Source: Candidatus Latescibacterota bacterium (GTDB taxonomy: Bacteria > Latescibacterota > UBA2968 > UBA8231). Taken from it: a stretch of 64,000 nt of DNA. The stretch covers positions 2,560,001-2,624,000 of the forward strand of contig OZ242005.1 in assembly GCA_965204725.1 (NCBI GenBank), given 5' to 3'. Both the position numbers and the translations under genes were made by a program. Under the pieces are notes generated by a model that worked only from the letters and a program-made list of their open reading frames with translations, was not told where the DNA came from and made no database searches. This document shows, in pieces, positions 40,704-57,492 of the stretch (its first letter is position 1; every line of letters begins with the position of its first letter).

Positions 40704-43106
40704 CTATTTGCGCTCGGCGATTTTGCAGACCCAGATGCTGATTTCGTACAGCAGGAGCAAGGGCAGGGCCATTAGGATCTGGGAGACCGGGTCCGGCGGC
40801 GTGAAGATCGCGCCGAGGACGAAGATGCCGATGATGGCATAGCGGCGGATATGGCGCATCCGCGCCGCAGTCAGCACCCCGACCTTGGCCAAAAAGAGCG
40901 ACAGCACGGGCATTTCAAAGACGATGCCAAAACCCGCTATGAGCCGCAGCACAAAGCCGATGTACTCGTCGGCTGCCCATTGCGAGGTCATGTCGGGCGG
41001 CTCGAGCGAGAGGAAAAAGCGCAGCCCGAGCGGGAGGACGATGGAGTAGGCAATCAGCGCCCCGACCGCGAAGCAGAAAACGCTCAGCGAGATAATGGGC
41101 ACCATGAGTTGTTTCTCGCGCTGCAAAAGCCCCGGCGCCACAAAGCGCCAAGTTTGGTAAAAGACGACCGGCAGCGCGAGCAACAGCCCACCGACAAAGG
41201 CGATTTGCAGGCTGATGAAAAAGTAAGTCATGGGCCGCAGGGCTTGCAGTCGGCGCGTCGGCGGCAGGTCGGCGGGGGGCGCGTCCGGTTGGGGCGCAGC
41301 ATCGGACAGGCCCAACCACTGGCGCACCAGTTGTTCGACGGCCCGCACCGCGCCCGCGGATTGCTGGCTCTCCAAGCTGAAGACGGCTTCTTCGTACGGC
41401 CGGGTCAAGATCTGCATGATCGAGTCGGAGAAGGCGAAGCAGAGTACCGCGCCCACAGTGAGCGCGCCGAGGGCCTTGAGAATGCGCCAGCGGAGTTCTT
41501 CGAGGTGGTCGAGAAAGGGCATGTTGGCTTCCCGGGGCGGGTCTGGCGGGTCTGGTTCGGGGCGAGCGTCTGCTTCTGCGGGTTCGGGGGCCTTGCGGAA
41601 GAGGGCGACGAACGCGCCCAAGGCGATTAGCAGGCAGCCGTAGGCAAAGAGGTCGCCGTGCCGCGTGTAAAAGGTCGTCGGCTGGCCGACCGGCACCGTC
41701 GCGACCGCAACCGCCGGCGCGAAGAGGTCGGTCGCCTCGTAGGTGCGGCCAAACGGGTCGATGAACAGGGAAATGCCGGTGGTGGCTGCGCGGGCGATGG
41801 CCGTGCGGTTTTCAACGGCGCGCATGGCGTTGATGAGCGCGTGTTGGTAAGGGCCGGCGCTGCGGCCGAACCACGAGTCATTGGTGATGTTGACCAGCAC
41901 CCGCGCCCCAGCCGCCACGTGCTGGCGCACTAACGCGGGAAAGATGGACTCAAAGCAGATAAGCACGGCAAAGGGGTGCCGAGGATGGGCAAAAATCGCG
42001 TGTTCCGTGCCGCGCGCGAATTCGGCCGGGCCGAGGTCGCCGGTCAGGCGGGTCCAGTCGATGTCGCGCAGCAGGGGGATGGCGTCTCGATAGGGCGTCC
42101 GCTCGCCAAAGGGCACCAAGTGCATCTTGGCGTACCAAGGCAGGGCAGTGGCCTCGGGCTCGACGAAGAAGGCCGCGTTGTACTGGGCGTGCGGCGCGCC
42201 GGTGAGCACGGGAATGTCCAGTTCCTCGACGAGTGCTTGGACGCGGCCTCGGCAATCGGCTCGGCGTACGGGGTCGCACGGCAGGGCGGTTTCGGGCCAG
42301 ACCAGCAGCTCGGGATCGCGCTTGGCCGCTTGGCGCGAGAGGGTGGCGAGGGCCGAGAAACTGCGCTCCAGCCCGTTTGGACCCCACTTGTCGGCGTAGG
42401 TGGTGTTCGGTTGGATCAGGCCGATGCGCAGGCCCTCGGCCGGGACGGCCGCTGCTAGGGCGCTCTGCGCGTGGAGCCAAGGCAAGAGATAGCCCAAGGC
42501 AACGCCCCCGAGAAAGACTCGGCGCTCAACGAGTGCCAAATAGAACAGCGCGTTGAGACCGACGACCCAGCAGGAGACGCCAAAGACCCCGGTTGCGGTG
42601 GCGTATTGGATGAAATGGGGCAGGGCCGCTTGGCTGTGCCCCAGCAAGAGCCAAGGAAACCCCAACTCCCCGAGCGAGAGCGCATACTCCTGCCCGGTCC
42701 ACAACAAGGGCAGCAGCGCGAGGGCCTTGGTGCCCCACCGCACGGCGAGCACGTTGAACAGCCCAGTGCAAAGGCCGGTAAAAAGGCCCAAATAAGCGGC
42801 CATCAGCCCGGTGCCCGCGACGACGGCCGGGCCTCCGCCTTGGGTATAGGCCACCCAGTACAGGGACAGCAGGTTCCAGACCAAACCGCTGATCCAGCCC
42901 ATGGCCAAGCCGGCTTTGAAGCCGCGATCTTTCAGGGCCAGCAGCAAAGGCACCAAGGCACCATGGGCCCAGAGCGGATGATAGAGAACGGCGAGCGGGT
43001 GATCCGGGTGGTTGGGAAAGGCCAGCGAGAGCAAGGCCCCGCTTAGTGCAGCGAGCAGCAGGCGGTGCAGCGAGGTTGGGGCTAGGACCAAGCGCGGGTT
43101 AGACAT
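40704..43106 (-). CDS. lnt-tatC: Apolipoprotein N-acyltransferase (Lnt) - TatC in-frame fusion
   Basis: Lnt: GFPW, WPETA, KMHLVPFGE, ICFES, NDSWFG. TatC from about 41522: MPFLDHLEELR, FVAPGL, FEMP, TPPDPVSQ, LYEISI. Confidence 0.9.
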   Translation of the reverse strand: MSNPRLVLAPTSLHRLLLAALSGALLSLAFPNHPDHPLAVLYHPLWAHGALVPLLLALKDRGFKAGLAMGWISGLVWNLLSLYWVAYTQGGGPAVVAGTGLMAAYLGLFTGLCTGLFNVLAVRWGTKALALLPLLWTGQEYALSLGELGFPWLLLGHSQAALPHFIQYATATGVFGVSCWVVGLNALFYLALVERRVFLGGVALGYLLPWLHAQSALAAAVPAEGLRIGLIQPNTTYADKWGPNGLERSFSALATLSRQAAKRDPELLVWPETALPCDPVRRADCRGRVQALVEELDIPVLTGAPHAQYNAAFFVEPEATALPWYAKMHLVPFGERTPYRDAIPLLRDIDWTRLTGDLGPAEFARGTEHAIFAHPRHPFAVLICFESIFPALVRQHVAAGARVLVNITNDSWFGRSAGPYQHALINAMRAVENRTAIARAATTGISLFIDPFGRTYEATDLFAPAVAVATVPVGQPTTFYTRHGDLFAYGCLLIALGAFVALFRKAPEPAEADARPEPDPPDPPREANMPFLDHLEELRWRILKALGALTVGAVLCFAFSDSIMQILTRPYEEAVFSLESQQSAGAVRAVEQLVRQWLGLSDAAPQPDAPPADLPPTRRLQALRPMTYFFISLQIAFVGGLLLALPVVFYQTWRFVAPGLLQREKQLMVPIISLSVFCFAVGALIAYSIVLPLGLRFFLSLEPPDMTSQWAADEYIGFVLRLIAGFGIVFEMPVLSLFLAKVGVLTAARMRHIRRYAIIGIFVLGAIFTPPDPVSQILMALPLLLLYEISIWVCKIAERK

Positions 43107-46751: not shown

Positions 46752-47029
46752 GACTGTTTGTACGCGGCGAGGATGCGGTCGCCTTCCTCTTGGGTTTCGC
46801 GCAGGAGCGTTTGTAGCACGTCTTCGGGGGTGCCGGTGCGCTCTTGCTTGGCGGACCAGTGCCACTGCTCCAAGTAGGCGTCGCTGCCGACGAGCCCTTC
46901 CTGCATGGCGATGCGGTCGATCGCCTGTTGGAAGCGGGCGGGCAGGGTATGCGAGCGCGGCCGGCGGTCGACAAAGAGCTTGATTTGCGCGGGAATGTCG
47001 CGCCAGTAGAGGACTTGGTATTGAATCAT
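46748..47029 (-). CDS. 'Virulence factor' family small protein (usually linked to split MetH)
   Basis: [10 protein letters not shown]...[13 protein letters not shown]...YLEQW. Confidence 0.8.
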
Positions 47030-48030
47030 GCGGCTAGTACTTGGCGAAAGGCGCGGATGTGGTCGGGCGTGGTGCCGCAGCAGCCGCCGATGATCTGGAC
47101 GCCGGCCGCGGCCAAGTCTGGGAGGTGCGCGGCCATTTCCGCGGGGCTTTGCGAGTAGATGGTGCGGAGGGCGCTGTTAAGCCGCGGCATGCCGGCGTTG
47201 GGATAGGTCATCAGCTTCTTGTCGAGGCCGCGCTCCTGCATGGCGGCCTTAAACTGGGCAACGCCGTGGAGGGCGTACGGCATGCCGGTGTGCTCGTTGC
47301 GCCGGGTCTCGGCACCGCAGTTGACCCCGACGAGGTGGACGTGGTCGAGCAGGTTGTCGCCCCCGGAGTATTGGCCCGAGGCGAGTATGTCCAAAAGGTC
47401 GGCGGCCGAGTGCCCCCAATCGGTGCGATAGACGATCTGCTTGCTTTTGCGGTCCCGCGTGTATTTAAGCGCGAGGTTGACGGCCATGGGCAGGCCGGTC
47501 TGGCGGACGATATTGCAGATCATGGCCGCTTCGACCGCGGAAAACTGAGTCTCAACCGAGAAGAAATCGACCCCGCCTTCGTAAAGCGCGTCGATGATGC
47601 GCTGATGCGCGGCGCGGACCTTGTCGTTGGCAATGCCGAAATCCGTACTGCCCGCGTCGGCTTCAATGGCCCCGGGGGAGGGGCCGATGGAGCCGGCGAT
47701 GAAGACATCCCGCTCGCCGAGTTCCCGGGCGCGCTGGGCGAGCTCGGCCCCGCGCTGGGCCAGCGCACCGGCTTGAGCCGGGTCTTTGCCGGCCATGGCC
47801 AAGTGCAACTCCGAGGCGACAAAGGTGTTGGTGCCAATGCAGTCGGCCCCCGCGGCAATGTAGTCGGCATGAATGGCGACGACGGCCTCGGGGTGGCTTT
47901 CGTTGGCGAGGGTGGAGTTGGTCAGCTCGACTTGGCGAGCGAAAAGCTCGGAGCCAAAGCCGCCATCGTACAAGAGAGGGCGCGGGTCGTCGAGGCACTG
48001 GAGGAAAGGGGACACAGGGCAGGTCTCCAT
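47026..48030 (-). CDS. Homocysteine S-methyltransferase domain protein
   Basis: [43 protein letters not shown]. Confidence 0.9.
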
Positions 48031-48064
48031 CTAGGACAGGGTGTCGGCGCAGGAGCCGCTGAAC

Positions 48065-48086
48065 AGCCATTCGAGCAAGCGTTGGC
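48065..48086. repeat. 22-bp direct repeat, left copy (AGCCATTCGAGCAAGCGTTGGC)
   Basis: Identical to 55461-55482. Confidence 0.9.
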
Positions 48087-48148
48087 TAAGATATGAGAGA
48101 CATCTTTATCGCGGGATAGCGAAAGCGCATTATCTATCATTTATTGTG

Positions 48149-49207
48149 CTAACTGTAGTTGAATTGCACCAGTTTAAGGGCTTTTTTCGGTTCCAACGGA
48201 TGTAGGTGGGCAAGGTTATTGCGGGCGTCACGTAGGTATTTGACTTTGTTATGAACTTTACAATAAGTATGGGACCACACAGACCTCTCAAGTTCACTGA
48301 GCTCCACATCAAGAGGATCCTTACACTGTAACGCTCTCTGAAATTTAGACATGTTGTTGCGGACGATCTTGACACGTTGGGACTCTATCTGTGGTAAAAG
48401 CACTGCTGCTTGGGCACTCCAAAGGCGGATCTGGAGTGTACGCGGTGGCTCCTCAAGAGAGGCGAGAGCGGCATGCTCGATTCCAGACTTTGACGCGGTT
48501 CCAAGTTGCCAATCTAAGGGTGTGTGGAGCGTCCATCCTTTTTCTTTCGCAACAGATCGCAGCATTTCGCAAGGTGACAGAATAACATGGGGCCTCTCGT
48601 CGAGTAAGCGCATTGCGATGTCGAAATCCCAAGATGCTATGTAGGCTACCGTTGTGGCTAGAAGGATGCGTTGGGAATAGTTCATTCCTTTTTGCAACAG
48701 ACGGTCATTGGCCCAGAACAGGAGGTCCATTTCGTCAAGAACATCGCTCCAGTCATGTGTTTCCATCGTCACATCGTTTTTCGGTGGCTCCTCGGGCGGC
48801 TTTCCCTCAAGAGGCACAATAAATAAGGTCCGACCAAGAGATGACATGGCCCGATTCACCTGCGCGTATTTGGTGAGGAATTCTTGCCATTGCTGCCACA
48901 CCTTGGGGTGTACGCTGTCCAACCAAATAAGCTTGCCACGAAAACCCTCGTGTTCACAGAGTCCATGCAAGTCTCCTGTATTCGATAATACGCTAGGTGC
49001 GTACTTCTTACATAGCCCCTCAAACGGAGAACTCGTACACTTGAACCTTACAAAGTTCAATCCTTGCACATCTTTTATAATCGCATCTTGGAATCCTAGT
49101 GGCATCGTACCTGGGAACCTTACGATTACGCTCACACCATCGTTTAATGATCGCCCTATCGCTTTCAGAAAACGTACGGCACCGGACAATTCCCAAAGTC
49201 TCATCAT
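48149..49207 (-). CDS. Hypothetical protein with C-terminal HEPN-like RxxxxH motif
   Basis: LRDARNNLAHL near the C-terminus; ATGA overlap with the NTPase gene. Confidence 0.65.
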   Translation of the reverse strand: MMRLWELSGAVRFLKAIGRSLNDGVSVIVRFPGTMPLGFQDAIIKDVQGLNFVRFKCTSSPFEGLCKKYAPSVLSNTGDLHGLCEHEGFRGKLIWLDSVHPKVWQQWQEFLTKYAQVNRAMSSLGRTLFIVPLEGKPPEEPPKNDVTMETHDWSDVLDEMDLLFWANDRLLQKGMNYSQRILLATTVAYIASWDFDIAMRLLDERPHVILSPCEMLRSVAKEKGWTLHTPLDWQLGTASKSGIEHAALASLEEPPRTLQIRLWSAQAAVLLPQIESQRVKIVRNNMSKFQRALQCKDPLDVELSELERSVWSHTYCKVHNKVKYLRDARNNLAHLHPLEPKKALKLVQFNYS

Positions 49208-52200
49208 CCACTATCTTTCGTCAGAAGTCGCTTCACTAGTGGATTAAAAGACCAACTATCACGGTATTGCAGTAATCCGAGACGTTTAGCCCAATCCAGT
49301 CGTTGACTCAAAATCCCATCAGATGAAGAGTTTTCCTTCATCTCAGACAACAACTCCTCTACCCCTTTCGCATCCTCAGAAGTGAATGCCTCGTACTCAA
49401 GCAGAGCCTGAAGCTGATTTTTAATTTCAGGAGAGTCAATACCCAAGAGCTTTAGCCACTCCTCACGTTCTTCTATGATCGTGTTATTGATCTCCTCAAT
49501 TAGCGTGTCCAAGTTAGTCGATGATAGCTGGTAGAACTTCTCCAAGATAAAAGGCCATCCACCAGAGATGTCGAGCAAATCTTTCACCTTAGATTGGTCA
49601 ATTAGCAGGTTATTATCATCGCACCATTGGCGTAAAAAAATGTGATTCCATGGACCCGCATAAATCCAATCGATACGTCTATTGTCCTCAGTAGTCTCCA
49701 GTATGTGCCACAGCTTAGCCGAGTCCGCTACAAAAACGACTCGAATATAAGGTCCTCTCTGAATAGCATCTAGGGAATTGGTTGCTTCCTCGATCCAATG
49801 TACATCCCAAGAAGTCTCCAAAGGCACCAAATACACATGAGTGCCTTGTCTCGCATCTGGACGTAATTTTCTCAGATGCTTGCTGAAGGCATCCACATCC
49901 TTAAACCGCTCTAATTCTTGGTACAATGGGCTTTCTTTTTTAGGGTGGCCCAATTCTATACGGCCCGAAAGAAACTCTCCAATATCCTCAATATTCACCG
50001 CGTTTGTGCCCGTCACTACCGTCACGCCACCATTACGTCTTAGCTGTGCCTCCTGCTCATAGCTCAGTGGTCCACGCCTAGGTGATTTGTCATCTCCTTT
50101 GTATCTCGCATGGAACGAGGCGGGCTCAAAGACTTTTGGCATTTCGTGCTGTTTGTCAAGCACTTGCTCAATTTCATCACTCGTTCCTAATAACAAGAGA
50201 ATATTGGGATTGCGAAGGGTATATCGGGCACTATCTTTCACTTGGCGCAACACACCAAGACCCTCCATCTCATGGAGAAGTACGTACAACTCGACATCAG
50301 GAATTTCAAAACCTTCCGGCCACCAAGTTCGTACCACTTCCGCTATTCGGTATCGATTCAATCCTTGTGCAATGTTTTTAGCGTTTCCCTGCAATTCGAA
50401 TGCCATTGCATAAGCAATGACCTCGTATCGCGGGTCTAACTGCAAAGTTAGCAAAAAGCGTCCGCGAATGTTTTGTCGGAGTCCATCCCTGATAAACGAG
50501 GCTTCGATGTCCTCCATGCTTATTTTATAGTGAACTTCCTGTGAGGAATCCCGCAAGTACCTGAGAAGTTCGGCACCATATAGTTGAACGAGCGACGGGT
50601 AGTAGTTGGTCTGTGCAAGTATGTGAGTGATCAGGTTATCTCCTGCGAACTGATATCCAACTGAGGATAACGGCTGACGAATTAGAGATCGAGCTTCTTG
50701 CCATTCACCATTCGAGAGAAGCGGGCCAAGACAAATAGGTTCTCCTAAGTGGGCGAGAGGGTGATTGGCCTGCTCTGTAGTCCTCAAGACGTTGTGTAAT
50801 CCAGCAAAGACGACCTTGAATTTCCTGCCGGTTTCTTCCATCAACCCCTTTAGGCGTGTAGATTCGCGAAAATCCGATTTCGCATCGAGTTTCAAGAACT
50901 CGTCCGACTCGTCCAACAGCACCAATAACCGACCTTCTTTGCGTTCTCTGATGATGTTCTCGAGAGTACTGATCCAGCGACGATGTCCAGCTTGTCCCTG
51001 TCGCGCTTGACTGTCATCGGGCACGAGTTCGACCTTGATCAATTCGTCCCACAGAACACGCCATATATCTTCTGCTGGACGAGCGTAGCCTATCTCGCAA
51101 ACCTTGAGATCGACATATATAGCGACGTTTCCCTTCTCCGGGCGGTGGAAAGTAGCCTTGACGGAGCGAAGTAGGGCAGTCTTGCCGAGTTGACGGCCTC
51201 CGTAGACAAAACAGCTTCCGTATTCATCTATAATCGCACTGTGTTCTCTCGCACGGCCATAAAACATTTCAGGTGGCACCAAGCTCGAAGTCGTAATAAA
51301 CGGTTCGGCCGACGTAAATGGTAGGGTACAGCTAAAAAATGCATGTAACCGGCCGGAGGTCACAGTGGAAAGGAACAGGACGAGAGCCTCATCGACTACA
51401 AGAAACAATTTATGATGCTGTATCGCCCAGTTGCGGAGCCACTCGCGATCAGATGTCAATAGTCCAAAGTGGAAGACCATTGTATGGTCGTGTGCATCGC
51501 TCGACTGGATTAACGATTCTCTGGCCGGTTTCTTCCAATTCAATAGGATTCTATATTGTCCGTTTGCCGCCGAGCCAAATATATGGAGCGGGCATAGATC
51601 CCGATCTCGAAGGGGTTCCGTCTCTACCTTGGCGGATGTTTTGCTATCGGACGAGACACGTTTTACTACAAACCCCAATAGTTCCAAGAACTCTCTGAGG
51701 AGATGCTCGTCAACGTCATGGTATTGGAGTTTTGACATTTTATACCAAATCTCTAGTAAACGAGCCGCCCGTTTTGCGTCCTGTTTCGCAATAGAACTAA
51801 AATCGAGGCCTGCGACAGGTCTACATGTCGCCACAGTTCTTACGATCTTGTCGTACGTTGGACGGTCTGCCGCATCCAGAGTGCTCTCGATCTCCAATCT
51901 CTTCGTCTGGAATTCATCGAACTGACCGCGTTCATCCGATTGTTCTATTATCTGTTCGCCACTACTCAACCTTCCGATTTGTTCTCGGGCAGTTACGAAG
52001 TCGCCCTCTTCAATAGCGGCTTCCACAATCGACTTTTCTTTCGAGGTTATCTGAGGGAGCTCGTTCAAATAATTGCGAGTGTCCTCGACACCCTTAGTGC
52101 GATACTGAGCGAGGTATTCTCTAATATCAGCGAACTCTTTTTCGTTGTACAAGATAGACTCCGGAGTCGAGAATTCCTGCAGAATTCGCGCCGCTAGGTC

Positions 52201-55200
52201 GTTTCGTACGTCTTCGTCGATCCAACCCGAGTAGTAAGCCCGCTCTATTTCTTCGATTAGTTTAGACTGTTTGTTGCGTAGTTTTTCACATCGCTGACTG
52301 ACAACTTCCTTGAGTTTGGTTCGACAGTGAGCCTCGTCCTGATCGGTGATGGAAGCCATGTGGTCACAAACGAGATTTGCGCCGATTAAGTCATCCCGCT
52401 TCAGACGAGCATCGAACGCTTCTATCAGTGTCGAGACGTGAGAGTCCAAATCATTGAGATGATCAACAGCCGAGTTCGAGTCCTGATCAACGACTAGTTC
52501 GTATTCTCTGTTGATATCCAGTGCGGTAACGTAAAGAAGGTCTTGGGACAAGATGACGGCAGGTTTTTCGGTGAAGACAGAAGTGTCCGTATCTTCACTG
52601 ATCTCGAATAATCTCGTCAGTGCCTTGATAGTTTTGTGACTTATTGTGAGGGCGGATGCGAGCGGTAAGGGTGGGCATTCGCTTTGGACTTGCTCAATTG
52701 CTGCAAGTGCGGAATCCCTGTGCTGGATTACGACAGTACGCAACTCCTCGATAGCCCGCTCAAAGAATTTTTTCTGATCTGGCTTTACTTCCATCAGTGA
52801 CAACCATTCTTGAGCGAGATCAAGTATGGGTTTCAGATGGTTTTTGAGTTGCTCTAGAGCACGTGCCTCAATGTTCCGGCCAGTCTGCCGACCGATCTTG
52901 TTGCGATCGGTATCACGGACGAGGTTCTGAAACTCTCGTTGCTCCTTAAGCTGCTTCTGAAGTTCTTGAATTCTCGTTCGGTTCTTTTCTTCGGCATTCG
53001 ACAGCAACTCTGCAAGATCATGCAATATCTCACCCTTGAGTTGCCACCTTCGCCAGACTTCATGCGCCGGTGCAAACATGATTCGCTGAGCTTTCGCCTC
53101 GTCTCGCCACGCCTCGACTCTCGCTGCGTGATCTTTAAACCGGCTTTCTAGAAAGGTTTTGTTGAGTGCCGTTTGAAGTCTCATGACATCGAGAGGCACA
53201 TTATAAAATTTACCTATTTTGTCTATGACACCACGAGCGAACTCGGATACCGGCGCAAGTTTATCTAACAGCTTCACTTCTTTCAGAATCCGTAGGGCAC
53301 CGGTTTGCGGCGCAAATATAGCGGGTCGTAGTGCAGCGGAGAATAACAACAGGTTGAGCGCGTCTTGAGCTTTCTCTTGGACTTTAGTGTCGTAACGGGT
53401 CAAGTCGCCGATGGCGTTAAGGTGGTTTCCAAGCTCTTTTACGATCTCCCCCTCTGGCCCGTACACTGAATTTCCCAAGGCTGTTGCGGCAATCAGATCC
53501 GCAGGCGGAAATACCGCGCTCGTGCGGTCTTCTTCGGGAGTCAGCCGTGCTATGTGATACGCGATTCCTAGTCGGTCATTTCCTATAGTTCGCCACAGGT
53601 TGAGTGCTCGTAGGTCAAGTGGGGCGTCGCTGATCTCCGATCCTTGGTAGCGAACGTCGGTATCCTCGGACTCATACCGCGTACCAGCGTTGTCAGTGTC
53701 GCCATCGGATATGCTATTATCAGTCAATTCATCAGCACCCGGCAACATGGGTATAGGCAGTTCTGGGACATTCGTCTGGTGGGTTGCCGTGGTATCCTCA
53801 TCCGCTACGTTTAGGCGTGGCTCGCTCGCGTCTTGATCAGCTTGCTCCTGATCGGGAGCTTCCTGCTCTATGTCCTCTGACTGAATATCATCTCGGCCAT
53901 CGGTTGGTTCCACAACCGCGATACTAGGTGCTTGGAGATCTGCCCATTCGCGCTCATAATCTCGTTGATCTTCGTACTCATGACCTTCTGGCAATGCCGC
54001 TTTTAGAACACGGTACATCGCTTTGGTTTCTTGAGTTGTTGAATCAGCGAGATCAGTACGAAATTCCTCTATTTCCTCGCGGAGGCTGAATTGCAAGGAA
54101 GGGTCTTTTGTTACAGTATTTTCTGCTTCTGAGATTCTCTGCTTTAGTTCAGTGATACGGTCGGTCACCATGTGCAAATTACTGACAGCACTTGCTAAAT
54201 TTTGCTTGACGCGCTCTGCATCGGCTTGAAGGGCTTCAACGTCTGCTTGGTCCTCAACTAGGTAGGTGAGCTTCCAAACCGAATGTATCTTAGACAAAGG
54301 CAACCAAGATACGTCGCCGGTATGCAATCTGATGTCTTCGATAACTCCTTCCACAAGTCGTTCGGATTGAACTGCCACGTATGCCGTCAGTACAGATTCA
54401 CGAAGTTTCCCCACCTCATCAAACAGCCTCGACAGGTCGTTGAATAACAGGTCGTCTGACGGATTATCACCGAGTTTGTGTGCAGTGTCCGCTAGTGCCT
54501 CACACACTTTGCGAAACGCCCCCTCAACATCTTCTCTTTCCCCCTTAGCAGTCTCGCTGGGAAACTGTGGAAGAAGTGCTTCCTTTTCATGTGCGTCTAC
54601 GTTGGGGGCTGGAGATGAACTGGGTAAAGCAAACTCGAAATCCTCAGCAAGCTCCTCGACTTCGTTGGCTGCCCAGATGAGCAATCGGATGTCATCCAGA
54701 ATTGTCGCAACAGAGAATGCGGCGAGTGCAACATGGGTTTGTCGGTCCAGCGGAAGTTCGTTCCACTTCATTAGGTCGCTGTAGATCGCTGGCAGAGCGG
54801 CAAGAGCTGGCCTCTGCCAATCATTGGATTTGACAGAGGGCTCGAAGAAGTCAACACAATTATTAAGTGCTTCCTCGTCCATCTCAGCTTGGAATAGACC
54901 CTCGTCGTAGTTTTTGATTGCACATGCTTCCAAGGAACGGGAGAGAGGACTTTGAGTCTTGGCACCGTTAACCAAGTCCATCCATAGTTTTCGCCGTTCC
55001 TGAGGTAGTTCATAGAAGAACTGTAGACGAAGAGCCGGAGTCTGAAGATCGGGAGACAGGAGTCTGAGATCTTTTAGAGTACTTTTGATGAACGCGTCAA
55101 TCTTCCGCCTAACCGACCGGGCTTCAGCCTCAATGCCGAGAAGTACGCGAAGTGGCTTAAGATATCTCCCAGATAGTAATCGGCTGGGTAACCCTTTAGG

Positions 55201-55224
55201 CATCTTGTGATTTGCTTTCATCAT
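49204..55224 (-). CDS. Giant P-loop NTPase (STAND/AAA-like), 2006 aa
   Basis: MFYGRARE, Walker A YGGRQLGKT, Walker B LLVLLDESD, VVFAG; long helical N-terminus; GGAGG RBS. Confidence 0.8.
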   Translation of the reverse strand: MMKANHKMPKGLPSRLLSGRYLKPLRVLLGIEAEARSVRRKIDAFIKSTLKDLRLLSPDLQTPALRLQFFYELPQERRKLWMDLVNGAKTQSPLSRSLEACAIKNYDEGLFQAEMDEEALNNCVDFFEPSVKSNDWQRPALAALPAIYSDLMKWNELPLDRQTHVALAAFSVATILDDIRLLIWAANEVEELAEDFEFALPSSSPAPNVDAHEKEALLPQFPSETAKGEREDVEGAFRKVCEALADTAHKLGDNPSDDLLFNDLSRLFDEVGKLRESVLTAYVAVQSERLVEGVIEDIRLHTGDVSWLPLSKIHSVWKLTYLVEDQADVEALQADAERVKQNLASAVSNLHMVTDRITELKQRISEAENTVTKDPSLQFSLREEIEEFRTDLADSTTQETKAMYRVLKAALPEGHEYEDQRDYEREWADLQAPSIAVVEPTDGRDDIQSEDIEQEAPDQEQADQDASEPRLNVADEDTTATHQTNVPELPIPMLPGADELTDNSISDGDTDNAGTRYESEDTDVRYQGSEISDAPLDLRALNLWRTIGNDRLGIAYHIARLTPEEDRTSAVFPPADLIAATALGNSVYGPEGEIVKELGNHLNAIGDLTRYDTKVQEKAQDALNLLLFSAALRPAIFAPQTGALRILKEVKLLDKLAPVSEFARGVIDKIGKFYNVPLDVMRLQTALNKTFLESRFKDHAARVEAWRDEAKAQRIMFAPAHEVWRRWQLKGEILHDLAELLSNAEEKNRTRIQELQKQLKEQREFQNLVRDTDRNKIGRQTGRNIEARALEQLKNHLKPILDLAQEWLSLMEVKPDQKKFFERAIEELRTVVIQHRDSALAAIEQVQSECPPLPLASALTISHKTIKALTRLFEISEDTDTSVFTEKPAVILSQDLLYVTALDINREYELVVDQDSNSAVDHLNDLDSHVSTLIEAFDARLKRDDLIGANLVCDHMASITDQDEAHCRTKLKEVVSQRCEKLRNKQSKLIEEIERAYYSGWIDEDVRNDLAARILQEFSTPESILYNEKEFADIREYLAQYRTKGVEDTRNYLNELPQITSKEKSIVEAAIEEGDFVTAREQIGRLSSGEQIIEQSDERGQFDEFQTKRLEIESTLDAADRPTYDKIVRTVATCRPVAGLDFSSIAKQDAKRAARLLEIWYKMSKLQYHDVDEHLLREFLELLGFVVKRVSSDSKTSAKVETEPLRDRDLCPLHIFGSAANGQYRILLNWKKPARESLIQSSDAHDHTMVFHFGLLTSDREWLRNWAIQHHKLFLVVDEALVLFLSTVTSGRLHAFFSCTLPFTSAEPFITTSSLVPPEMFYGRAREHSAIIDEYGSCFVYGGRQLGKTALLRSVKATFHRPEKGNVAIYVDLKVCEIGYARPAEDIWRVLWDELIKVELVPDDSQARQGQAGHRRWISTLENIIRERKEGRLLVLLDESDEFLKLDAKSDFRESTRLKGLMEETGRKFKVVFAGLHNVLRTTEQANHPLAHLGEPICLGPLLSNGEWQEARSLIRQPLSSVGYQFAGDNLITHILAQTNYYPSLVQLYGAELLRYLRDSSQEVHYKISMEDIEASFIRDGLRQNIRGRFLLTLQLDPRYEVIAYAMAFELQGNAKNIAQGLNRYRIAEVVRTWWPEGFEIPDVELYVLLHEMEGLGVLRQVKDSARYTLRNPNILLLLGTSDEIEQVLDKQHEMPKVFEPASFHARYKGDDKSPRRGPLSYEQEAQLRRNGGVTVVTGTNAVNIEDIGEFLSGRIELGHPKKESPLYQELERFKDVDAFSKHLRKLRPDARQGTHVYLVPLETSWDVHWIEEATNSLDAIQRGPYIRVVFVADSAKLWHILETTEDNRRIDWIYAGPWNHIFLRQWCDDNNLLIDQSKVKDLLDISGGWPFILEKFYQLSSTNLDTLIEEINNTIIEEREEWLKLLGIDSPEIKNQLQALLEYEAFTSEDAKGVEELLSEMKENSSSDGILSQRLDWAKRLGLLQYRDSWSFNPLVKRLLTKDSG

Positions 55225-55447
55225 GCCTCCAAAGAGAGGGTATTAACTAAATCTTTCCGTGCAAGCTGTCAACCCTTGATTCGTCTCACTTAATACTTCA
55301 TTGCGCCCACAGGGCCTGAGGCCACCCGCTCGCAGATGCTTCTTCGCTATATCCGGTAGCAGTGGGCATAGCTCGGCTATCTTGGCAGTAGAAATTTTGA
55401 CGGGAGGGGGTATCTTCTGCGAGGGGATTGTTCGCTACGAGCTACTT

Positions 55448-56338
55448 TTACGCTCCTAGTAGCCATTCGAGCAAGCGTTGGCCAAAGTCCGGGGCCAAGT
55501 GCGGTACGTGCGCCCCTTGCACCATGGTCCACAACTCGATGGTGGCGTCGTTGCGGCAGCCCGTGCGGTAGCGGGTGCGGGTCGTCTCGGGGCCGTCGAG
55601 GTCTTGGTCGAGGTCGAGCGGGGGAAGGGTTTCTGGCTCGGTGAGGTTGCAGCGGGCGAGCGCGGCCCAGCGCAACGCGACTTCTTCCGCGCCGGCGTAC
55701 TCCTGCTCGCCGGTGCTCCCGTCGTAGGCTATTACTTGGTCGGCCGTGCCGTGGATTTGCAGCACCGAGACCGGGGACGCAAAGGCACAGCGCGAGGGGT
55801 CGCTAAAGGAAGTGCCGGCGAGGCTGGCAATGGCGACTAGCCGGGGGATGCCTTCGCAGGCGAGCCGGTAGGACATAAAGCCGCCGTTGGAGTGCCCGAG
55901 GACGAAGATGCGCTCTACGGCGATATGCGTGGCGGCCTCTTCGAGCAACCCTGAAAGGTACTGCACGTCATCGACTTGGGTGTTGTGGAGGTCGCAGCAG
56001 AAGTCCGTGGCGTTCCAGAAGCGATGGCCGTCGGGATCACGTGTGCCATTGGCCATAACGAGGGCGAAGCGATGGGCATTCACCCGCTTTGAGAGGCCAA
56101 AATAGCGGTCGTGCTCGGCCAAATGGCTAGTGAAACCGTGCAGGCTGAGCACGAGCGGAATCGGCGTTTCGGGGTCGTGGTCGGCTGGGAGAACTAGGAG
56201 GGCCGGGCGTTCGCCGCCTAACGTGTGGACGAGGTGATTTTCGCTTAGGTTGGAGATCAACTCGGTCGGGGACATTTCGCCACAGGCGAAGGATATCAGA
56301 GATGACAGAATAGCAAAAATGCTTCTTCTTTTTCTCAT
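55448..56338 (-). CDS. PHB depolymerase/LpqC-like alpha/beta hydrolase, possibly a lipoprotein
   Basis: LSLHG, WNATDFCC, GHSNGG, IHGTAD; signal ending SFAC. Confidence 0.85.
   Translation of the reverse strand: MRKRRSIFAILSSLISFACGEMSPTELISNLSENHLVHTLGGERPALLVLPADHDPETPIPLVLSLHGFTSHLAEHDRYFGLSKRVNAHRFALVMANGTRDPDGHRFWNATDFCCDLHNTQVDDVQYLSGLLEEAATHIAVERIFVLGHSNGGFMSYRLACEGIPRLVAIASLAGTSFSDPSRCAFASPVSVLQIHGTADQVIAYDGSTGEQEYAGAEEVALRWAALARCNLTEPETLPPLDLDQDLDGPETTRTRYRTGCRNDATIELWTMVQGAHVPHLAPDFGQRLLEWLLGA
55461..55482. repeat. 22-bp direct repeat, right copy
   Basis: Identical to 48065-48086; lies within the esterase 3' end. Confidence 0.9.
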
Positions 56339-56463
56339 AATATTAGCCCTCCTTTCCGTTTTCGATCTACAAATTGACGAAGAATGACGCCCACACTCAG
56401 TAGGCGGTGAACCGCCCAAAGCTCAATTTTAATCTACGGAATAAGACCAACAATACCAACGCG

Positions 56464-57492
56464 CTAGGCGGCGAGTTCGCCCTTGCGATAGGCGCGGAGG
56501 AAGGCGACGCAGTACTCGTCGCGGCCCAGCAGCATATCCTCGGCCAGTTGGTAGGGACGGGCTTGGCGGTCAATGGCAAAGAGGGCGGCTAGCGAGGTGG
56601 TCGTCGGATCCATAATCGCGCTGTCGGCACCCGCTTCGACGGCCAGCAAAAGGAAGACATCGTTGATCAAATGGCGGCAGGGCAGGCCGAAGGAGACGTT
56701 GGAGAAGCCGCCGGTGATGTGGACTTCGGCCCCCAACTCGTCGCGCAGTTGGCGAATGGCGTCAAAGGCGTGGTGGCCGAATTGCGCGTCAACCGAGATG
56801 GGGAAGATCAAGGGGTCGATGTAGAGGTCAGAAAGCGGCAGGTCCAATTCCTGTGCCTTATCGACCATGCGCCGAGCGTGATCAATTCGTTCCTCAGCAC
56901 TTTGCGGCATACCGGACTCGCCAGCCGCCGTGATGACGACTTGGGCGTTGTATTGTTTGGCCAGCACTAGGGCTTCGGGCCGCTCTAAAGACGCGGAGTT
57001 GAGCAGCAGGCGCTGGGGGTGGTCGGCACCGGCTTCGAGGCCGACGGCGAGGGTATCTATTTGGGAGGAGTCAATGGCCAGAGCCGTCTGCGACATGGCC
57101 GATACCGCCTGCACCAGCCAGCGCATGGCCTCTTGTTGCTCTGCCGGCTTGAGCGATATTTCATCGACATTGAGGTCGAGAAAATCGGTGCCGGCCGCTT
57201 CTTGGCGCTGTACTTGACGGCGGAGGTAGTCGAGGGCATCCGCGTTGCCGAGCATGGCCTGTTGCACGGCGATCTTGAGGTGTTTGACGCGGCCTTCCTC
57301 GTAGTCTTGGGTTGTTTTGACGGCGTCGGGAATCGAGAGGAAGCGGCGCGTGTTGTTGGCGTCGCGGAAGCGCACGGATTCAACGCCTTGGGGGTCTGGG
57401 CCGATGAGCTTGCCTTTGCGCAAGACGACGCGGGTGGTGTGGATGTTTTCGCCGATGACGACGAAGGGACGGTCCGTACCGGGGATGTTCAT
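56464..57492 (-). CDS. Pterin-binding methyltetrahydrofolate:corrinoid methyltransferase (MetH/AcsE module)
   Basis: VIGENIH, LDLNVD, AIDSS, LNSAS, IDPL, GGFSNVSFGLP. Confidence 0.88.
   Translation of the reverse strand: MNIPGTDRPFVVIGENIHTTRVVLRKGKLIGPDPQGVESVRFRDANNTRRFLSIPDAVKTTQDYEEGRVKHLKIAVQQAMLGNADALDYLRRQVQRQEAAGTDFLDLNVDEISLKPAEQQEAMRWLVQAVSAMSQTALAIDSSQIDTLAVGLEAGADHPQRLLLNSASLERPEALVLAKQYNAQVVITAAGESGMPQSAEERIDHARRMVDKAQELDLPLSDLYIDPLIFPISVDAQFGHHAFDAIRQLRDELGAEVHITGGFSNVSFGLPCRHLINDVFLLLAVEAGADSAIMDPTTTSLAALFAIDRQARPYQLAEDMLLGRDEYCVAFLRAYRKGELAA

Follow-up and report, generated by a model that had tools for sequence, protein, structure and literature searches.

A mobile two-gene island pairing a 2006-residue P-loop ATPase with a predicted pseudo-ATPase–HEPN partner in a Latescibacterota genome

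Introduction

The closest described counterpart of the locus reported here is the nSTAND2 operon, a computational prediction (Kaur, Iyer, Burroughs, and Aravind, eLife 2021; PMC8195603). Section 15 of that paper and the legend of its Figure 6C describe a mobile operon of which both products are STAND proteins, the eroded one being fused mostly to a GT4 or a HEPN domain, and the two are predicted to form a hetero-oligomer. In BREX, BrxC is an AAA+ ATPase from the ORC/Cdc6 clade and BrxB is an inactive STAND protein (PMC12839542). For HEPN domains, the residue following the motif arginine is given as mostly N, D, or H (PMC3710099, section 6), and the motif is placed where a long helix ends and the next loop begins (PMC3710099, section 7). 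Here, we analyze a window of 64,000 nt from a Candidatus Latescibacterota bacterium (assembly GCA_965204725.1, contig OZ242005.1, positions 2,560,001 to 2,624,000), in which a gene for a very large ATPase (hereafter the giant) and a gene for a smaller protein (hereafter the partner) make up an island of their own. A literature search returned no description of a 2000-aa ATPase with such a partner, the nearest text among the sections it returned being section 15 of PMC8195603.

We read this pair as a self-contained, horizontally mobile two-gene conflict system, probably anti-phage and of the abortive-infection type, a reading to which we assign a probability of about 0.55. The pair is mobile, patchy in its distribution, and self-contained. 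It also belongs to a large family that has no name, and neither protein is modeled in Pfam, NCBIfam, or PADLOC.

The gene pair and its giant ATPase

The two genes lie on the reverse strand (Table 1) and overlap by ATGA, the stop codon TGA of the giant (49204–49206) sharing bases with the start codon ATG of the partner (49205–49207); GGAGG directly precedes the start codons. A preliminary description of the window, drawn from its letters, had named two translationally coupled frames of 2006 and 352 aa, and the list of open reading frames (ORFs) and the sequence bear this out; the FYGR, Walker A, Walker B, and RNNLAH motifs likewise lie where it had placed them. A scan of the island for promoters and terminators gave nothing above shuffled expectation, and an Rfam scan of 47000–56500 at the gathering threshold returned nothing.

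The NTPase that had been proposed for the giant is real. FYGR (aa 1321–1324) is followed by a Walker A motif of the form GxxxxGK[ST], namely GGRQLGKT (aa 1342–1349, nt 51178–51201), and by a Walker B motif of the form hhhhDE, namely LLVLLDESD (aa 1433–1441, nt 50902–50928), as in P-loop NTPases, and the Walker residues G, K, D, and E do not vary among 19 aligned giant sequences. On aa 1321–1478, Pfam reports AAA_16 (20.1 bits, cut-off 32.6), AAA_22 (18.1 bits, cut-off 27), and ATPase_2, all below cut-off; this ATPase region is also the sole recurrent Pfam match in 24 giant homologs, with AAA_22 rising above its cut-off in seven of them. The Atlas places the giant among unnamed clusters, the nearest named ones carrying nSTAND1, AAA_35, ATPase_2, and TniB, and a solved-structure search with the giant profile gave a best E of 0.043, to 6mfv_A over 35 residues at the P-loop. 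Scans of both proteins against NCBIfam and PADLOC gave nothing meaningful, and at E ≤ 1 neither matched any PADLOC-DB v2 family, whether of BREX, Druantia, or any other system; no known system model matches the pair, which leaves standing its earlier description as a candidate system.

Relatives of the giant are numerous. Of 8000 candidates scored in a word-index search with aa 1250–1800, 2764 reached E ≤ 1e-3; most of the 120 relatives listed are 1800–2100 aa long and 50–60% identical over this segment, and one of those listed is named by its source, as a hypothetical protein of a Gemmatimonadota metagenome-assembled genome. In an alignment of the window protein with 21 relatives, mean column identity per 50-aa block is 43–77% at aa 1200–1750, the conserved core, and 11–43% at aa 1–1200. 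The giant has an acidic stretch at aa 401–545 (26% D+E). Five close homologs (73–100% identity per 100-aa block) show no sharply hypervariable segment, and a tblastn search of the ATPase half against 50,697 phage records gave no match. The preliminary description had seen no TPR-type sensor in the giant, in agreement with Pfam, which finds no TPR or other repeat family there.

Further toward the C-terminus, aa 1732–1891 (49552–50031, reverse strand) contain a strand and a glycine-rich turn, GGVTVVTG (aa 1732–1739), later strands, and SGGWP (aa 1887–1891), which resembles the GxP motif of STAND lid domains. Judged from these motifs, the segment may be a second, degenerate STAND/ATPase-like module.

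The partner is built on a predicted pseudo-ATPase

An AlphaFold2 model of the partner, computed on 26 sequences, has a predicted local distance difference test score (pLDDT) of 90.0 and a predicted template modeling score (pTM) of 0.86, and shapes aa 1–254 into an AAA+/STAND-type alpha-beta domain with a helical lid. Foldseek ranks the delta subunit of the E. coli clamp loader, itself inactive, first for the partner (E 3e-5), the TM-scores being low because the domains are arranged differently, and the best structural matches of the N-terminal domain are ORC/Cdc6-type and clamp-loader-type folds. The position of the P-loop reads VRFPGTMPLGF, with no GK[ST], and the position of Walker B keeps a single acidic residue (LIWLD-S/G). 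The fold and lid are present and the Walker A lysine and the Walker B catalytic glutamate are lost, as in inactive STAND and pseudo-AAA+ proteins, and the model indicates that aa 1–254, two thirds of the protein, is an inactive AAA+/STAND-like pseudo-ATPase. The preliminary description had envisaged an NTPase sensor that activates a separately encoded HEPN nuclease. Its NTPase is real and its RxxxxH motif is conserved (see below), but two thirds of the supposed nuclease is this pseudo-ATPase; because aa 1–254 appear to be inactive and AAA+/STAND-like, the coupling between giant and partner is likely one of ATPase to pseudo-ATPase and not of sensor to free nuclease.

This partner family is large and uniform in size. 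A HMMER search with the profile of 26 sequences yielded 2341 representative clusters (at 50% identity) at E ≤ 1e-3, of which 653 reach E ≤ 1e-30. Of the 150 clusters listed, nearly all have lengths of 350–390 aa; a word-index search found 55 homologs. With the same profile, a search of solved structures found nothing better than E 0.19, and an hhalign comparison of the partner profile with the C-terminal 770 aa of the giant gave 0.5%, that is, no detectable paralogy between the pseudo-ATPase and the giant.

An inactive STAND-like fold joined to a HEPN-like domain is also what the nSTAND2 operon encodes, and the pair could be a divergent member of that predicted operon, offering nothing new beyond one more member. 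Compared by eye, the rows of the nSTAND2 supplement contain a comparable pattern of a strand followed by proline, hhhh-x-x-H, and a TVVELP-like string. Against this, the inactive module in the nSTAND2 alignment spans about 315 aa at the N-terminus, its single active row covers residues 76–351, no row has coordinates that would suit a 2000-aa protein, and six motif strings of the giant are absent from those supplements of PMC8195603 that were compared. The Pfam nSTAND models have no match to the giant at E ≤ 1, and one weak nSTAND_NTPase5 match appears in its 24 homologs. As weaker evidence, a word-index search for partner relatives of 661–2000 aa found none, and hence no sign of a fusion, to GT4 for instance, exceeding 660 aa. 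We therefore regard simple membership of the nSTAND2 operon as unlikely, though well worth weighing.

The C-terminal domain of the partner

The last third of the partner has the arginine and histidine of RNNLAH at the spacing of the HEPN motif, Rx4–6H, with a polar residue after the arginine. R329, N330, L332, and H334 are invariant in 26 partner sequences down to 28% identity. A wider census took in those 186 of 205 sequences that reach at least 330 aa, 19 shorter ones being dropped: RxxxxH is retained in 184, as RNxL[A/S]H in 160, as another RNxxxH in 6, and as another RxxxxH in 18, these last having H, D, or R after the arginine (e.g. RHALAH, RDRLAH). In the two homologs that have no RxxxxH, the entire domain is lost. 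The conservation that the preliminary description needed for its candidate nuclease is thus present. A model of the HEPN-like domain alone (pLDDT 89.9) has helices at residues 15–45, 47–54, 64–70, 74–94, and 101–109; R90 and N91 close the fourth of these (74–94) and H95 opens the loop, a predicted placement that agrees with the description of HEPN domains in section 7 of PMC3710099.

Profile comparisons point the same way. At E ≤ 0.5, Pfam on 86 partner homologs gave 17 matches to HEPN_Swt1 (PF18731; best 8.7e-4), five to DUF4145, one to HEPN pEK499_p136 (5.4e-4), and one to Ribonuc_2-5A; all HEPN-family matches lie at the motif region, and no unrelated family occurs in more than two homologs. 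A smaller set of homologs gave HEPN-family matches in 6 of 26. We also aligned the domain (21 rows) by hhalign to a genuine HEPN_Swt1 alignment assembled from the genomes of relatives (12 of 28 extracted rows, the domains scoring 120–142 bits against a cut-off of 27.5), most of these domains being N-terminal in open frames of about 1110–1140 aa. The match has a probability of 88% (E 3e-6) over 36 columns, which run from the preceding helix through the motif into the beginning of the helix that follows; two unrelated profile pairs used as controls gave 0.5% and 0.6%. From these sequence comparisons, we consider it quite likely that the C-terminal domain is a divergent, Swt1-like HEPN domain.

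Several results weigh against this assignment. Pfam finds no match on the window partner at E ≤ 1, and in the homologs the HEPN matches stay below the gathering score (27.5 bits for PF18731) and extend over about 30 residues around the motif. Only a third of the domain, 36 of about 113 columns, is taken in by the hhalign match. At aa 274–278 the consensus is I-E-x-x-R; R278 is invariant in the 26 sequences and nearly so in the 21-row alignment, but some rows have D or A for E275, so that the acidic residue is only partly conserved, and E-x2-R differs in spacing from the E-x3-[KR] of HEPN helix 2. Foldseek on the C-terminal domain alone gave generic helical matches and nothing at E ≤ 1e-3, with no HEPN structure among them; of the fold and profile checks that the preliminary description had suggested, the profile comparison leans toward HEPN and the structural search points neither way. 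The domain could, then, be a docking or regulatory helix bundle and not a nuclease, the effector residing elsewhere in the giant or in host factors. The restriction of the sequence matches to the motif-bearing helix would suit such a bundle, no fold is assigned to about 1700 aa of the giant, and some distant giants are paired with a PLD-SNF2 helicase, or with a partner homolog that has an additional AAA_33 kinase-like domain. However, R, N, and H at an exact four-residue spacing, with N, H, or D after the arginine (184 of 186), are the HEPN catalytic signature as section 6 of PMC3710099 gives it, and the matches are spread over four different HEPN families, any other family being confined to at most two of the 86 homologs. 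A helix bundle devoid of nuclease function appears rather improbable to us on this balance.

The genome that contains the window also has two further Swt1-like HEPN domains, both above the Pfam cut-off, at G000:C1:1918744-1919085 (locus L047) and G000:C1:5068091-5068435, the open frames being 1115 and 1153 aa long. The L047 frame resembles the HEPN-DUF499 ATPase of Hma/BREX-related systems in its size and its N-terminal HEPN domain.

Pairing, relatives, and decay

A scan for the partner pattern, with one genome per species, gave 32 loci in Acidobacteriota, Gammaproteobacteria, Binatia, and others. In 20 of them, an ORF of at least 1800 aa ends a few bases from the partner start; at L015 the giant is split into two ORFs, and L019 and L027 reach contig ends. 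When the flanks of all 32 loci were compared with one another, only the pair was conserved, other shared neighbors being confined to closely related genomes. The suggestion that the pair could be an orphaned part of a larger helicase locus is, given this, a poor fit to the window's subfamily, unlike the distant plasmid relatives of the giant, which do lie beside helicases. The genome of the window has a second, divergent pair (G000:C1:5274438-5280873; L035 8438..14874, reverse strand) of 1714 and 431 aa, again overlapping by ATGA, whose giant is 33% identical in the ATPase half and whose partner shares the RLW..Q and RNxLAH blocks (RNDLAH). This second pair is flanked by ABC-transporter-type genes.

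On plasmids, 28 records have a relative of the ATPase half of the giant, and the partner matches found there by tblastn lie directly downstream of a giant homolog in three of three cases (Salinibacter, Agrobacterium, Thiodictyon). Together with the precise insertion described below, these locations would suit a selfish addiction or toxin-control module that stabilizes the island or plasmids and has no anti-phage role; HEPN proteins are common as toxins of toxin–antitoxin pairs, according to the abstract and table of PMC3710099. Yet a 2006-aa ATPase far exceeds any antitoxin in size, defense genes are frequent neighbors, and an intact partner ORF stands beside a truncated giant at L003, L009, and L012, an arrangement that would be lethal were the giant an antidote. 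We consider an addiction module very unlikely.

Decay and rearrangement take several forms across the loci. At L003, L009, L012, and L026, which are remnants, the partner adjoins only the tail of the giant (its last 150–290 aa), and L016 has an internal deletion. At L031 (8654-10693, forward strand), a 679-aa ORF fuses the N-terminus of the giant (aa 8–486) to the C-terminal domain of the partner.

Some distant relatives of the giant have other companions. On the Brasilonema plasmid CP030123.1 (L088 4477-14736), a 2289-aa relative has sigma-70 regions 1.2, 2, 3, and 4 at aa 71–368 and is followed by a PLD-SNF2 helicase; no partner homolog appears in the annotated table, which is perhaps incomplete. 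The Azospirillum plasmid NZ_CP029830.1 (L090 1546-12992) has a pPIWI-RE Argonaute-like gene directly before a 2403-aa giant relative, which over its first 100 aa resembles the final part of the pPIWI-RE RNase H model; the partner homolog downstream (hhalign 98.8%, 334 columns) has RRGMAH for RNxLAH and an added AAA_33 kinase-like domain. A Methylocystis giant lies between a UvrD-type helicase and genes annotated as STY4851/ECs_5259 family and DEAD/DEAH helicase.

The island and its insertion site

GC content falls from 0.63–0.65 in the flanks to about 0.44–0.52 across 48000–55000, and this segment is bounded by a direct repeat of 25 nt with 24 of 25 positions identical (96%; Table 1). A DNA search with the alpha/beta-hydrolase gene, which lies to the right of the island, found matches in 23 of the 30 other genomes of the genus, and these begin at query base 13–14 (window 55460/55461), exactly at the repeat. 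We aligned five of the 23 (G027, G019, G023, G007, and G011), all of which have an empty site with contiguous flanks and a single copy of the repeat. Because the flanks are joined with one repeat in these five genomes, the 7371 nt between the repeats represent a true insertion. Read in the frame of the hydrolase, the left repeat copy runs to a TAG that abuts the ATG of the methyltransferase gene, and we read it as the original end of the hydrolase gene. The repeat, the ORF list, and the empty sites together uphold the earlier view that the two genes are the whole cargo of a repeat-bounded island. In G006, another member of the genus, a close homolog of the partner lies about 6.3 kb from the hydrolase gene on the same contig, which would agree with this island occupying the same site there.

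Table 1. Positions of the gene pair, its domains, the island, and the adjoining genes in the window
Feature	Position	Strand	Remarks
Homocysteine S-methyltransferase gene	47026..48030	-	Left repeat copy just upstream
Left repeat copy, AGCCATTCGAGCAAGCGTTGGCTAA	48065..48089	.	Read, together with the bases on its left, as the hydrolase gene's original 3' end, now severed
Inserted island, 7371 nt	48090..55460	.	Two genes only; from GC, repeat, and empty sites
Partner gene	48149..49207	-	352 aa; ORF list and translation
Partner aa 255-352, helical HEPN-like domain	48152..48445	-	Motifs RLWSAQ (aa 261-266), IESQR (274-278), RNNLAH (329-334)
RNNLAH, Rx4H motif, partner aa 329-334	48206..48223	-	
Partner aa 1-254, predicted inactive AAA+/STAND/ORC-Cdc6-like domain and helical lid	48446..49207	-	
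Giant ATPase gene	49204..55224	-	2006 aa; ORF list and translation
Giant aa 1481-2006, conserved C-terminal half	49207..50784	-	No family
Giant aa 1321-1480, P-loop ATPase core	50785..51264	-	FYGR, Walker A, Walker B, VVFAGLHN
Giant aa 1200-1310, conserved domain before the ATPase	51295..51627	-	D and E of VVDE invariant
Giant aa 1-1199	51628..55224	-	No recognized family
Island leader, 236 nt, non-coding	55225..55460	-	Upstream of the giant gene
Right repeat copy	55461..55485	.	Inside the present 3' end of the hydrolase gene
Alpha/beta-hydrolase gene	55448..56419	-	

The hydrolase end is altered by the island, about 12 original codons being replaced by three new codons and a new stop. A gene for a pterin-binding domain (56464-57492), the hydrolase gene, and the homocysteine S-methyltransferase gene, all on the reverse strand, stand in a row that resembles a split methionine-synthase-like unit. 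Elsewhere in the window, a single 800-aa ORF (40704-43106, reverse strand) joins an apolipoprotein N-acyltransferase (LNT_N and CN_hydrolase) to a complete TatC, an unusual fusion.

Distribution and defense context

Among 151 related genomes, 14 have a partner homolog (E ≤ 1e-5), as do 6 of the 30 in the genus. For the neighborhood of the pair, 21 intact loci were represented by their nearest ORFs of 180 aa or longer, two per side and 80 in all, chosen by a greedy longest-ORF rule by which some may be shadow frames. In 10 of the 21 loci, at least one of these four nearest ORFs has a PADLOC match at E ≤ 1e-20, a raw count given with no background rate. The neighbors so matched are a type I restriction endonuclease, PtuB/HNH, PDC-S01 (twice), PDC-M34B, PDC-M21B, TmtA, and three methyltransferases. 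Intact loci also have genes for transposases or integrases nearby, as well as one for AbiEii. The PADLOC match at L006 was discounted, as Pfam identifies it as a DnaG primase.

A housekeeping machine for RNA processing or chromosome maintenance that happens to lie in a variable region would account for the ORC/Cdc6-type and clamp-loader-type folds that best match the partner N-terminal domain. The sparse occurrence among related genomes and the site left empty in five close relatives speak against it, as do the foreign GC content, the decayed copies, and the lack of conserved neighbors, and we find such a role most implausible.

Proposed mechanism

In the mechanism that we propose, the giant would act as an ATP-driven sensor and scaffold. 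Its long, poorly conserved N-terminal region would be the sensing or regulatory part, joined to the active ORC/Cdc6-STAND-type P-loop ATPase with its conserved C-terminal half. The partner would be the effector subunit: by analogy with inactive subunits in mixed AAA+ assemblies, its pseudo-ATPase may dock on the ATPase module of the giant, and its C-terminal Swt1-like HEPN domain would be an RNase. BrxC/BrxB and the predicted nSTAND2 operon are precedents for such a mixed active/inactive design. Because HEPN RNases work in dimeric form, two Rx4H motifs being set next to each other, the likely switch is an assembly of the giant that pairs two partner HEPN domains. Upon a trigger, nucleotide-dependent assembly of the giant would bring these two domains together, and the paired domains would then cleave RNA and arrest growth. 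A complex prediction of giant aa 1296–1936 with the whole partner, made with alignments, scored 0.00 in two runs that had no controls, and is neutral on binding.

A more far-reaching version of this proposal is one that we hold only tentatively. Here, giant and partner would form a distinct and very widespread abortive-infection family, working by mixed assembly and HEPN pairing, in which the N-terminal 1200 residues of the giant would be a new sensor of invaders unrelated to the TPR-like sensors of Avs, and in which the chassis would have been re-used with a PLD-SNF2 helicase, a kinase-like P-loop domain, and a pPIWI-RE neighbor.

The reading of the pair as a mobile, probably anti-phage conflict system has to be weighed against a number of results that do not favor it. 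No sensor is identified: Pfam finds no family in the N-terminal region of the giant itself or of its 24 homologs, and an Atlas search with aa 1–1236, restricted to named clusters, gave no usable match. The ORF list contains no integrase or transposase within the island, which hence has no recombinase of its own. As for context, 11 of the 21 intact loci have no PADLOC match at E ≤ 1e-20 among their four nearest neighbors, and several neighbors are plain metabolic genes.

If the pair does serve in phage defense, it would represent an uncommon principle, in which the effector is carried on a pseudo-ATPase subunit to a giant active ATPase, and it would open the computationally predicted active/inactive STAND pairs to experiment. 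The precise island and the empty site in sister genomes provide a natural with-and-without comparison.

Comparison with known systems

Like the nSTAND2 operon as published, the pair is mobile and consists of adjacent genes for an active and an inactive STAND protein, the inactive one fused to a HEPN-like domain. It differs in that the active protein here has 2006 aa, about 1300 of them ahead of the ATPase and about 500 behind it, in that the inactive module is about 250 aa long compared with about 315 aa, and in that the partner sequences examined here have only HEPN-type C-termini. This likeness is one of architecture, taken from the published description and from an alignment viewed by eye.

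With Avs, the pair shares a P-loop NTPase of the AAA_16/STAND neighborhood, a nuclease-type effector (here predicted), a defense-island context, and a patchy distribution. Avs, however, holds the effector, the NTPase, and a repeat sensor in one chain, whereas here the predicted effector sits on a second protein with a dead ATPase fold; no TPR-like sensor was detected by Pfam and no PADLOC Avs model matches, so that the pair does not have the makeup of an Avs protein.

BrxC and BrxB of BREX, as PMC12839542 describes them, make a comparable couple: a large ATPase of the ORC/Cdc6-STAND type that is active, and an inactive STAND-like protein with a gene of its own. In contrast to BREX, the pair comes with neither a methyltransferase nor PglZ nor any other BREX gene, its inactive subunit bears the HEPN-like domain, and PADLOC gives no BREX match. 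The HEPN-DUF499 ATPase of Hma and type-1 "BREX-related" systems likewise joins a Swt1-like HEPN domain with an ORC/Cdc6-type AAA+ ATPase (table of PMC3710099; PMC12839542, sections 28–29). According to these sources, the HEPN domain of Hma is N-terminal, fused to the active ATPase, and accompanied by a methylase and a helicase; in the pair described here, the predicted HEPN domain is C-terminal to an inactive module, and the system has two genes. The genuine HEPN_Swt1 profile that we used came from relatives' ORFs of about 1115 aa, which are assigned to Hma by their size and N-terminal HEPN domain only. Set beside these systems, the pair is probably a giant-ATPase version of the design that joins active and inactive STAND proteins with a HEPN domain, a real and new variant of NTPase-plus-HEPN conflict systems with a predicted function.

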